A stretch of 64,000 bases of DNA from Escherichia coli (GTDB taxonomy: Bacteria > Pseudomonadota > Gammaproteobacteria > Enterobacterales > Enterobacteriaceae): assembly GCF_003334405.1 (NCBI RefSeq), contig NZ_QOWM01000009.1; one strand, given 5' to 3'. The notes beneath the pieces are model-generated. The model was not told the origin of the DNA. It saw nothing but the letters and a program-made list of their open reading frames with translations, and made no database searches. Of this stretch, positions 10,492 through 37,905 are shown piece by piece. A program made the position numbers and the translations under genes. Position 1 is the first letter of the stretch, and each line of letters starts with the position of its first letter.

Positions 10492-10737
10492 ATGACCGAT
10501 CTCTTTTCCAGCCCTGACCACACACTCGACGCGCTTGGCCTGCGCTGCCCGGAACCGGTGATGATGGTGCGCAAAACCGTGCGCAATATGCAGCCTGGCG
10601 AAACGTTGCTGATTATCGCCGACGATCCGGCCACTACCCGCGATATTCCTGGGTTTTGTACCTTTATGGAACACGAACTGGTTGCTAAAGAGACGGATGG
10701 ACTGCCTTATCGTTATTTGATTCGTAAAGGCGGTTGA
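10492..10737 (+). CDS. tusA: Sulfur carrier protein TusA
   Basis: 81 aa; CPxP active-site motif (LGLRCPEPV). Confidence 0.93.
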
Positions 10738-10757
10738 TAGGGGCTGATTGGCTTCGA

Positions 10758-10800
10758 TGCCGCCTTTTCCCCTCACCCTAACCCTCTCCCCAGAGGGGCG
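10758..10800. repeat. GC-rich imperfect inverted repeat between convergent tusA and zntA (likely bidirectional terminator; boxC-like)
   Basis: cccctcaccctaaccctctcccc agag gggcgagggga read directly; arms pair with one mismatch. Confidence 0.4.
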
Positions 10801-10838
10801 AGGGGACCGATCGCGCTCAATGTTGCGATCGGTTTGCC

Positions 10839-13037
10839 TTATCTCCTGCGCAACAATCTTAACGCATTCGCTGTCACCAGCACCGTCGCCCCCGTATCTG
10901 CCAGCACTGCCAGCCACAACCCGGTCATCCCTAACAGCGTGGTGACGAGGAAGATCCCTTTCAGCCCCAGCGCAATAGTGATGTTCTGGCGGATATTGGC
11001 GTGAGTGGCGCGTGCCAGTTCAATCATTTGCACCAGGCCGCGCAGGTGGTTATGGGTTAATGCTGCGTCGGCGGTTTCCAGCGCCACGTCTGTGCCGCTA
11101 CCCATTGCAATCCCGATGGCGGCAGCTTTCATCGCTGGCGCGTCGTTAATACCGTCACCGACCATCGCCAGCGGCGCATGTTGATTCAGCCCGGTCACCG
11201 CTTTGACTTTATCTTCCGGCAACAGGCCCGCTTTAAACTCCAGCCCCAGCTCCCCGGCAATTGCCGCCGCTGCGCGTGGATTATCGCCGGTGAGGATCAC
11301 CCCTTTGACGCCCAGCGCGTTCAGTTCACTGATGGCAGTTGCAGCATCGGCGCGCAGGGTATCCTGTAACGCAATGACACCAAGCACGTCATCGTTACGT
11401 ACTACCAGCACTACCGTTTGCCCGGCGCTTTCCAGTTCGTTAATTAAACCAGTAAATGCATCAGCGGGATGTTTCCCGGCAGCGCAAATCAATACGCGCT
11501 CACCGTTAACCTGCGCTTCAATGCCAGACCCGACCAGCGCCCGCTGTGATTCGGCGGTGGGAATGGCGAGTTCAGCAACCTGTGCTTCGCGTACGATGGC
11601 TTGCGCCAGTGGATGCGTCGCGCCTTGCTCGACCGCCGCCGCCAGTGTCAGCAGTTCAGATTCACTAATACCCGTTGCCGGATGAATCGCGGTAACGCGC
11701 GGTTTACCGACGGTCAGCGTACCGGTTTTATCAAACGCCACCTGAGTAACACGACCCAGCTGTTCCAGCGCCGCTCCGCCTTTAATCAACGCCCCACGAC
11801 GCGCTGCCGCCGCCAGCCCGGAGGTAATCGCCGCAGGCGTTGAGATAACTAACGCACACGGGCAGCCAATCAGCAGCAGCGTCAGCCCTTTATAAATCCA
11901 CTCCTGCCAGCTGGCGGCAAACAGCAGCGGTGGCACCAGCGTCACCAGCAGAGCGACGGCCATAATCGCGGGCGTATAGATACGGCTGAAACGGTCGATA
12001 AACCGCTCAATGGGAGCGCGACGCTCTTCGGCTTCTTCGATCAGTTTCAGAATCCGGTCAATGGCGCTGGCTCCCGGTTCTGACAGCACTTCCAACGTCA
12101 CCAGACGGTCTACGCTGGTGGCACCAGCAGGGACTTTATCGCCCGTTGCGCGCTCCACCGGAATGGATTCGCCGGTCAGGGCGCTTTCATCAAAACTGGC
12201 AAACGGTGAGAGCAGTTTACCGTCGGCAGGCAAACGCCCACCTGCGGCGACTTCAATCACATCGCCAGGGCGCAGGCTGTTAATCGCCACCTCTTCCCGC
12301 TCACCCTTACGCAGGCGCGTGGCGGTTTCTGGTTTCAGCGCCATTAACGCGCTAACGCCCTGACGCGCGCGGCTGGCGGCCCAGCCTTCCAGTCGTTCAC
12401 CAATCAAAAACAGCAGCAACACCATCGCAGCTTCAGCCGTTGCGCCAATAAACAGTGCACCAATAGCGGCTACGCTCATTAAGGTTTCAATGGCGAAGTA
12501 GCTGCCGGATTTGATCAACCGTAATGCCTGACGAGCAATCGGGTACAGCCCAACCAGCGTGGTCGCGATAAACGCCAGTTGCCCGAACGGATGATTGAAC
12601 TGCTCCAGACCCCAGCTGATTGCCATCATCACGATTAGCGTAATCAGCGGCAGATTCTCTTTCAGGCGTGATGCTTGCGGTTCTTCGGCGGCCTGTTCAT
12701 CGCGCAGGGAATAGCCTGCTTTTTGCAGCGCAGATTCAACTTGTGCACGAATGTCATTGTCGGCATCGACCACCAGTTTTTCGGTGGCGAACAACACCTG
12801 CACCTGATTCACGCCTGCAAGCTGGCGCACGGCATTTTCTACCTTGCGCGCACAGGCGGCGCAGTCCATGCCGCTGACTTTCCAGCTATAGCGGGTGCCG
12901 GAGACGTTTTCAGAGAGAGTTGGCGTGCTGGAACATGCGCCGTCGCAGCAACAGTCGTTGGCGTTCTGTACCGTGGTTAGCGGTTTGAACGCAGCAAATT
13001 GAGGGGCTTTCTTGCCGTGATTGTCAGGAGTCGACAT
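10839..13037 (-). CDS. zntA: Zn/Cd/Pb-translocating P-type ATPase
   Basis: 732 aa; N-terminal Cys-rich CCCDGAC and GMDCAACARKVE heavy-metal-associated motif; CPC in TM6 (LIGCPCALV); DKTGTLT phosphorylation motif; GDGINDAPA. Confidence 0.95.
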   Translation of the reverse strand: MSTPDNHGKKAPQFAAFKPLTTVQNANDCCCDGACSSTPTLSENVSGTRYSWKVSGMDCAACARKVENAVRQLAGVNQVQVLFATEKLVVDADNDIRAQVESALQKAGYSLRDEQAAEEPQASRLKENLPLITLIVMMAISWGLEQFNHPFGQLAFIATTLVGLYPIARQALRLIKSGSYFAIETLMSVAAIGALFIGATAEAAMVLLLFLIGERLEGWAASRARQGVSALMALKPETATRLRKGEREEVAINSLRPGDVIEVAAGGRLPADGKLLSPFASFDESALTGESIPVERATGDKVPAGATSVDRLVTLEVLSEPGASAIDRILKLIEEAEERRAPIERFIDRFSRIYTPAIMAVALLVTLVPPLLFAASWQEWIYKGLTLLLIGCPCALVISTPAAITSGLAAAARRGALIKGGAALEQLGRVTQVAFDKTGTLTVGKPRVTAIHPATGISESELLTLAAAVEQGATHPLAQAIVREAQVAELAIPTAESQRALVGSGIEAQVNGERVLICAAGKHPADAFTGLINELESAGQTVVLVVRNDDVLGVIALQDTLRADAATAISELNALGVKGVILTGDNPRAAAAIAGELGLEFKAGLLPEDKVKAVTGLNQHAPLAMVGDGINDAPAMKAAAIGIAMGSGTDVALETADAALTHNHLRGLVQMIELARATHANIRQNITIALGLKGIFLVTTLLGMTGLWLAVLADTGATVLVTANALRLLRRR

Positions 13038-37694: not shown

Positions 37695-37785
37695 GCGATC
37701 AGGAAGACCCTCGCGGAGAACCTGAAAGCACGACATTGCTCACATTGCTTCCAGTATTACTTAGCCAGCCGGGTGCTGGCTTTTT
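37695..37785 (+). ncRNA. ryhB: RyhB small RNA (Fur-repressed, Hfq-dependent iron-sparing sRNA)
   Basis: GCGATCAGGAAGACCCTCGCGGAGAACCTGAAAGCACGACATTGCTCACATTGCTTCCAGTATTACTTAGCCAGCCGGGTGCTGGCTTTT matches RyhB as I recall it, with terminal GC stem (gccagccgggtgctggc) and U-tract; between yhhY and yhhX as in K-12. Confidence 0.88.
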
Positions 37786-37905
37786 TTTTGATCTTTCGTT
37801 CTCAATTTATCCACGGGAGTGCTTGTGTTCGTTATGCGCACTCCAGTAGGAACCACGTCCGCTTTGCGCTAAGGTGTAAATAACCACCTTAAAAAGGACG
37901 AAATC

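Follow-up and report, generated by a model that had tools for sequence, protein, structure and literature searches.

The spacer between tusA and zntA in E. coli lies at the 3' ends of two convergent genes and contains a compact GC-rich element. The question is what this element is, and whether it serves either of the two genes. We analyzed it within a stretch of 64 kb of E. coli DNA, referred to below as the window. An earlier sequence-only reading of the window had described the element as a C-tract/G-tract hairpin unlike the REP elements found elsewhere, probably acting as a bidirectional terminator and resembling the E. coli boxC family. The inverted repeat is present as it was quoted (see the table), and the hairpin is real. 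However, two blocks had been described, whereas the + strand motif consists of three, namely two C-blocks and one G-block, and the second hairpin beside it had gone unmentioned. The inner hairpin reads CCCTCTCCCC-AGA-GGGGCGAGGG. A 24-mer core is found a single time in the 64 kb, with zero occurrences expected from 100 shuffles.

Positions of the features in and around the tusA-zntA spacer (window coordinates, except for the last two rows, which refer to loci in other genomes)
Feature	Position	Strand	Sequence or remark
tusA (sulfurtransferase) CDS	10492-10737	+	Upstream neighbour of the spacer
tusA-zntA spacer	10738-10838		101 nt, genes convergent
Full BoxC unit, ~55 nt, type A mm	10764-10818	-	Leave-one-out profile match
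Triplex-motif core, 36 nt	10770-10805	-	CCCTCGCCCC-TCT-GGGGAGAGGG-TTA-GGGTGAGGGG
Three-block motif	10769-10806	+	CCCCTCACCC-TAA-CCCTCTCCCC-AGA-GGGGCGAGGGG
Block 1	10795-10805	+	GGGGCGAGGGG; the single C-block when read on the - strand
Block 2	10782-10791	+	CCCTCTCCCC; pairs with block 1 over the AGA loop (10792-10794), one T/C mismatch
Block 3	10769-10778	+	CCCCTCACCC; alternative partner of block 1; TAA/TTA loop 10779-10781
Outer arms of the motif	10768-10778 and 10796-10806	+	TCCCCTCACCC / GGGCGAGGGGA; 11 nt, 91% complementary (inverted-repeat search)
Second hairpin	10806-10833	+	ACCGATCGC-(10 nt)-GCGATCGGT, then TTGCCTTATCT
zntA (Zn/Cd/Pb P-type ATPase) CDS	10839-13037	-	Convergent neighbour
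BoxC after tusA, MAG labelled Pseudocitrobacter	L042 3260-3314		Full type-A copy, E 2e-17
Enterobacter post-tusA matches	L017 3257-3305, L021 3243-3294, L016 3244-3291, L019 3261-3295, L018 3247-3277

RNA folding, which had been proposed as a check, bears out a structured spacer. The whole spacer folds better than its shuffles on both strands, with -47.7 kcal/mol (z -3.8) on the + strand and -47.4 kcal/mol (z -3.1) on the - strand. The 43-nt core alone reaches -21.1 kcal/mol (z -2.5) on the + strand and -26.2 kcal/mol (z -2.8) on the - strand. Either G-block can pair with the C-block, so that a stable GC-rich stem-loop would be present in the 3'-UTR of each of the two convergent transcripts. 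An outer inverted repeat, AAAGGCGG/CCGCCTTT (10726-10733 and 10760-10767), was no better than shuffles (z 0.0) and was discarded.

Judged by its sequence, the hairpin can be identified as a published element, copy no. 16 of the 23 BoxC (= PIT = TMECO) repeats of E. coli K-12. The three names were equated by Holder et al. (2015, PMC4666352), who regard TMECO as the BoxC palindromic repeat of the 1990s and as Hoyne and Maher's PIT (potential intrastrand triplex) elements, and who give the consensus CCCTCNCCC-N3-6-GGGNGAGGG-N3-GGGNGAGGG. Written as a regular expression, this consensus matches the window only once, on the - strand at 10770-10804 (35 nt). On this strand the core is identical to entry no. 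16 in Table 1 of that paper (MG1655 3,608,684-3,608,719), the 36th base of the entry being 10769. The entry is classified as 'A mm', that is, type A with one mismatched stem position, and Supplementary Table S2 places it between zntA (33 nt away) and tusA (31 nt away) (PMC4666352). In NC_000913.3, the end of zntA (3,608,649) and tusA (3,608,751-3,608,996) bracket these coordinates, and the MG1655 spacer is identical to that of the window. The 36-nt core of no. 16 is also identical to those of nos. 9 (fabI-ycjD), 19, and 22. The envM (fabI) region, the site of copy no. 9, is where boxC was first described. The E. coli BoxC repeat reportedly goes back to Bergler and colleagues in 1992 and to a survey by Bachellier and colleagues, and the PIT elements are said to have been reported by Hoyne, Maher, and colleagues in 2000 and 2002.

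The unit extends beyond the triplex-motif core. An alignment of the K-12 copies reveals conserved flanks outside the 36 nt: in type A, an extension of 14 nt on the C-block side, roughly G-T-G-C-A-C-G-G-A-C-G-G-T-C, and GAA(A/C)A on the other side. A leave-one-out nhmmer model built from the 14 other MG1655 type-A copies has its sole match in the window at 10818->10764 (E 5.8e-18, 60.6 bits, model positions 3-57 of 59). The span of this match sets the BoxC unit at about 55 bp; BoxC has been listed as 50-56 bp long with 22-32 copies (Petrillo et al., 2008). Read on the - strand, in the sense of zntA, the unit consists of the 14-nt extension, the C-block CCCTCGCCCC, a loop, the G-blocks GGGGAGAGGG and GGGTGAGGGG separated by TTA, and a GAAAA tail. 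The guess that the hairpin belongs to the boxC family is therefore confirmed by the consensus match, the identity to no. 16, and the recovery by a profile of sibling copies. At the level of the element we see no difference between the window copy and the published BoxC/PIT/TMECO: the core, the flanks, the size (about 55 bp), the intergenic location, the multiple copies, and the type 'A mm' are the same. The one local detail is that here the extension and the local flank form a 9-bp hairpin, tight only in the K-12-type allele.

Two types of the unit can be distinguished among the MG1655 copies. From the extension to the A-rich tail, type A contains a C-block, a G-block, and a G-block, and type B a C-block, a C-block, and a G-block; the two look like one unit with the middle block inverted. 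At five paired loci of MG1655, a type B and a type A copy stand tail to tail about a GCGCGC centre.

The family is dispersed. MG1655 contains 23 strict copies at 18 intergenic loci, and all 23 were located at their catalogued positions in the fetched DNA. A BLAST search with the spacer against 5,426 complete E. coli genomes matched every one of them, at a median of 19 places each (range 2-35), which identifies the spacer element as a dispersed repeat. Uniqueness in the genome, which would have spoken against a repeat family, is thus contradicted by both counts. Among the 18 K-12 loci, the flanking genes are convergent in seven, co-directional in nine, and divergent in two. Convergent pairs make up about 15% of neighbouring gene pairs in E. 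coli, and convergent spacers are therefore over-represented among the BoxC loci. This enrichment is compatible with tolerated insertion and with a 3'-end role alike.

Several observations concern the distribution of the repeat on mobile elements and outside E. coli. TMECO nos. 3 and 4, in the MG1655 stretch 281,800-289,600, fall within the annotated cryptic prophage CP4-6; the motif has been described as not associated with phages or other mobile elements (Holder et al., PMC4666352). BoxC-like matches of 80-90% identity are found on many plasmids of Sinorhizobium, Rhizobium, and Azospirillum, and a few small E. coli plasmids carry one BoxC copy. Two Campylobacter phage records contain three 96%-identical copies each, which may reflect contamination or chimeric assembly. 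Some of the 'plasmid' records with BoxC matches are 4.8-4.9 Mb long and appear to be mislabelled chromosomes.

Does this copy terminate transcription? According to the sequence-only reading, the GC-rich hairpin would be a bidirectional intrinsic terminator, halting RNA polymerase arriving from both tusA and zntA. Like such terminators, BoxC provides a stable GC-rich stem-loop 3' of stop codons, formed on both strands and placed in a convergent spacer, as at the other convergent K-12 loci, and the adjoining second hairpin with its UUUGCCUUAU tail could weakly terminate tusA. Unlike them, it lacks a 3' U-tract on both strands: after the hairpin, the + strand continues with ACCGAUCG / ACCGATCG and the - strand with AAAAGGCG. 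The runs that are present are inverted, with TTTT upstream on the + strand and AAAA downstream on the - strand; a bidirectional terminator needs the opposite order of A-tract, hairpin, and U-tract. In the BoxC family, the T-run is upstream of the hairpin on the C-rich strand. A scan for consensus promoters and terminators found nothing within the tusA-zntA spacer.

The sibling copies also argue against termination. Copy no. 19 is located between pstA and pstB, within an operon, and downstream of the adk-hemH copy stands a separate canonical terminator with its own hairpin and T-run. Experimental data point in the same direction: as summarized by Holder et al., the follow-up work of the Maher group detected neither promoter nor terminator activity in reporter assays, nor any effect on RNA polymerase (PMC4666352). 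In the curated Term-seq data of Adams et al. (2021), which cover three growth conditions, no 3' end is listed within MG1655 3,608,300-3,609,199; both genes are weakly expressed there, and the missing end is thus weak evidence. The Rho-dependence table of the same study places a region of termination on the tusA strand at 3,607,955, which is antisense to zntA and about 800 nt past the tusA stop codon (Adams et al., 2021); this indirectly fits read-through of the spacer by the transcript. The TERMITe and SMRT-Cappable-seq supplements have no entry for tusA or zntA, and no recognisable intrinsic terminator was found for zntA. Taken together, these data make bidirectional termination very unlikely, and we infer that the BoxC element does not terminate transcription at this locus. 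The literature already covers the element and the family to which it belongs, this particular copy, and the absence of terminator activity. Within the papers accessible, a literature search found no newer functional studies on TMECO or BoxC.

A better candidate for a terminator adjoins the element. The second hairpin is a perfect 9-bp inverted repeat, ACCGATCGC (10806-10814) / GCGATCGGT (10825-10833), that folds with -18.1 kcal/mol (z -3.3) and is followed by the tail UUGCCUUAUCU on the + strand. Because the BoxC extension reaches 10818, the 5' arm of this hairpin belongs to BoxC, and the 3' arm is local flank. The hairpin narrowly fails the terminator scan; it has a partial tract, UUGCCUUA, on the + strand only. 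Thus, it is this structure, and not the C/G-tract element, that may possibly act as a weak intrinsic terminator, and for tusA only. The tight 9-bp form is specific to the K-12-type allele; in the other E. coli alleles and in E. albertii the hairpin is longer and weaker. In those alleles the partner of the extension is farther away and pairs worse, so the tight K-12 hairpin arose by small deletions in the K-12-type allele.

We found no known RNA family in this region: an Rfam search of the spacer yielded no family reaching threshold. The only weak match was to Hrs13, an Hfq-regulated sRNA family, at 10756-10839 (+), but its 19.7 bits against a gathering score of 52 do not indicate homology. The match is explained by the two-hairpin layout and by a terminator-like stem, CCGAUCGC...GCGAUCGGUUU, and it stems from the second hairpin and its U-rich tail. 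The sole Rfam match above the gathering score in the window is the RyhB sRNA gene at 37724-37788 (+), with 83.1 bits.

Close analogs of BoxC are the REP/BIME (PU) elements. Both are short, GC-rich, imperfectly palindromic, and dispersed between genes, and both are found preferentially at the 3' ends of genes and between convergent genes. REP sequences are established stabilisers of the mRNA upstream of them. The sequences of the two families are unrelated: the REPs here read GCCGGATAAGGCG..., and the palindromic REP consensus (GCCGGATG...) is not matched by the spacer element, as the sequence-only reading had correctly noted. BoxC also differs in having three blocks instead of a simple palindrome, and we know of no transposase for BoxC comparable to the REP-associated one. 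With the boxC subunit of the Streptococcus pneumoniae BOX element it shares the name alone, the latter being a different element of a Gram-positive species.

The spacer itself is highly polymorphic: in E. coli it comes in at least four lengths (101, 260, 268, and 555 nt). A 301-nt query over the spacer has a full-length match in 4,575 of 5,426 genomes (~84%), corresponding to the 101-nt K-12 type of the window, in which BoxC is intact and the second hairpin tight. In strain MS10858 (allele L002, 268 nt), the core has one substitution and the spacer contains two REP sequences. In Nissle 1917 (L004, 260 nt), a deletion of 8 nt takes out one C-block, and again two REP sequences are present. In EC17CM2 (L003, 555 nt), the core is deleted, the extension and a GGCTAGCGG remnant are kept, and REPs are accompanied by a 102-aa ORF. 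Thus, true REPs lie beside BoxC or its remnant in all the long alleles L002-L004. The spacer of E. albertii resembles the 555-nt allele and holds a decayed BoxC remnant, CCTCTTCTCAGGGGGCGAGGGGG.

A miniature transposable element (MITE) would be expected to leave a clean empty site with a target-site duplication in related genomes. The core-less allele does not provide one: L003 keeps the extension and a G-block remnant, and it is therefore a product of deletion, not an empty site. Other differences accompany the haplotypes. The hydrophobic 102-aa ORF of the longest allele is WP_000385055.1, which E. albertii shares and K-12 lacks; no NCBIfam model matches it above the cutoff. The tusA coding sequence (last codons at window 10726-10737) ends in ...RKGG* in K-12 but in ...RKSG* in both EC17CM2 and E. 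albertii. Thirteen nucleotides immediately after the tusA stop codon, GGGCTTCGATGCC, are present only in the K-12-type haplotype and resemble the type-B BoxC extension.

A second example of a variable BoxC locus is provided by the adk-hemH spacer, which is dimorphic in E. coli. A segment of 156 nt with BoxC and the canonical terminator is present in 2,913 genomes, and most of the remaining genomes have instead an unrelated segment of 52 nt with a hairpin of its own. This dimorphism is a cassette replacement and not a clean insertion, with no clean empty site. Larger variable regions have been reported around TMECO loci than around controls (Holder et al., PMC4666352), and the allele series at tusA-zntA agrees with the claim of these authors that TMECO loci are unusually rearranged.

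The physical properties of the repeat offer one possible cause of such variability. Oligonucleotides of the G-rich strand of type A mm form a triplex in vitro, as observed by CD and NMR (Holder et al., 2015, PMC4666352), and G-rich single-stranded DNA forms a very stable purine-motif triplex, in vitro only (PMC4666352). In the window copy, block 3 on the G-rich strand would correspond to the third strand of this in-vitro triplex. Polymerase arrest at TMECO was also observed in vitro, and in vivo footprinting detected no stable triplex (PMC4666352). Holder et al. speculated that the repeat is an adaptive instability element, in which triplex or hairpin DNA stalls replication and promotes rearrangement, the element being maintained for the variation it generates. 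The several rearranged alleles of the tusA-zntA spacer, the cassette-like dimorphism at adk-hemH, and the published variable regions and polymerase arrest (PMC4666352) would suit this idea. However, no stable triplex was detected in vivo, and no link to mutations was seen in the long-term evolution experiment (PMC4666352). Moreover, one and the same 101-nt allele is common to about 84% of E. coli genomes, and intergenic spacers with REPs are variable as well, the long alleles here containing REPs themselves. We consider maintenance for instability highly improbable.

To see how the tusA 3' flank is occupied in other species, we used a TusA-based scan of one genome per species, which gave 80 loci (485 kb in total) that were searched with the BoxC profile. 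All matches are directly 3' of tusA, with no other match in the 485 kb. A genome labelled as a Pseudocitrobacter MAG has a full type-A copy after tusA, and type-B copies or partial and hairpin remnants follow tusA in Enterobacter asburiae, E. sichuanensis, E. cloacae, E. wuhouensis, and E. soli. No BoxC was found after tusA in the examined Citrobacter loci or in most other genera of the scan. The Enterobacter copies have the core on the same strand as in E. coli and the extension on the tusA side, not the zntA side. Given this reversed polarity and their type B structure, they cannot count as simple orthologs of the E. coli copy; orthology by descent was set aside as unproven, also because BoxC is missing from the Citrobacter loci and most other genera. 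As many as 143 BoxC copies have been counted in one Enterobacter genome (Holder et al., PMC4666352), which makes a shared tusA spacer only mildly surprising.

The copy in the Pseudocitrobacter-labelled MAG is 47/47 identical to that of K-12 across the core and part of the flanks, while tusA is 86% and the 3' end of zntA 78% identical. This pattern suggests gene conversion, recent transfer, or selection. One reading of the occupancy after tusA, by type A in Escherichia and the MAG and by type B in Enterobacter, with a core identical between genomes whose neighbouring genes differ by 14-22%, is that BoxC preferentially lands or is retained in the tusA 3' flank, and does so in more than one lineage of enterobacteria, the element being a selected 3'-UTR or DNA-structure module, or site-targeted, and not a passive repeat. 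We regard this as quite unlikely.

A related scenario is that the stem-loop is a 3'-UTR module that shields the tusA and/or zntA mRNA from 3'-to-5' exonucleases in a REP-like manner and is kept by selection. Such a role would be consistent with a GC-rich stem of -21 to -26 kcal/mol located 31-33 nt past each stop codon, with the presence of BoxC or its remnants directly after tusA in the five Enterobacter species and nowhere else in the scanned loci, and with the perfect identity of the core and adjacent flank between K-12 and so divergent a genome. On the other hand, the element has decayed or been deleted in E. albertii, Nissle 1917, and EC17CM2, and is absent from the examined Citrobacter loci and most other genera. 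The Enterobacter copies are of the other type, with the extension on the other side; at up to 143 copies per genome, chance sharing of a spacer is not rare; and identity of the core can come from gene conversion among copies. This scenario is unlikely, too, though it deserves more weight than the landing-site reading.

The explanation that we consider probable is that the element is BoxC copy no. 16, a tolerated repeat with structural side-effects and without a dedicated role in gene control. That it has no such role at tusA-zntA would follow from the absence of evidence for one. The repeat would persist where little harm results, that is, 3' of two converging genes. Its main consequences would be structural: the stem-loop may slow 3' exonucleases, and BoxC would supply one arm of the adjoining hairpin, the more plausible, if weak, terminator of tusA. 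The locus would also be unusually prone to insertions, deletions, and segment replacement. Three observations remain in tension with a merely tolerated repeat. BoxC with the core on the same strand stands right after tusA in several Enterobacter species, and the 47/47 identical copy lies in a MAG whose neighbouring genes are only 78-86% identical; either could reflect selection. The convergent enrichment (7/18 K-12 loci) fits a 3'-end role equally well.

The function and mode of spread of BoxC are a decades-old question, for which the allele series of this spacer, together with the recurrent occupancy of the site after tusA, provides a convenient natural test bed. In summary, the practical consequence is one for annotation: the label that fits the tusA-zntA spacer is that of a BoxC/PIT/TMECO copy, and a predicted bidirectional terminator should not be annotated there.
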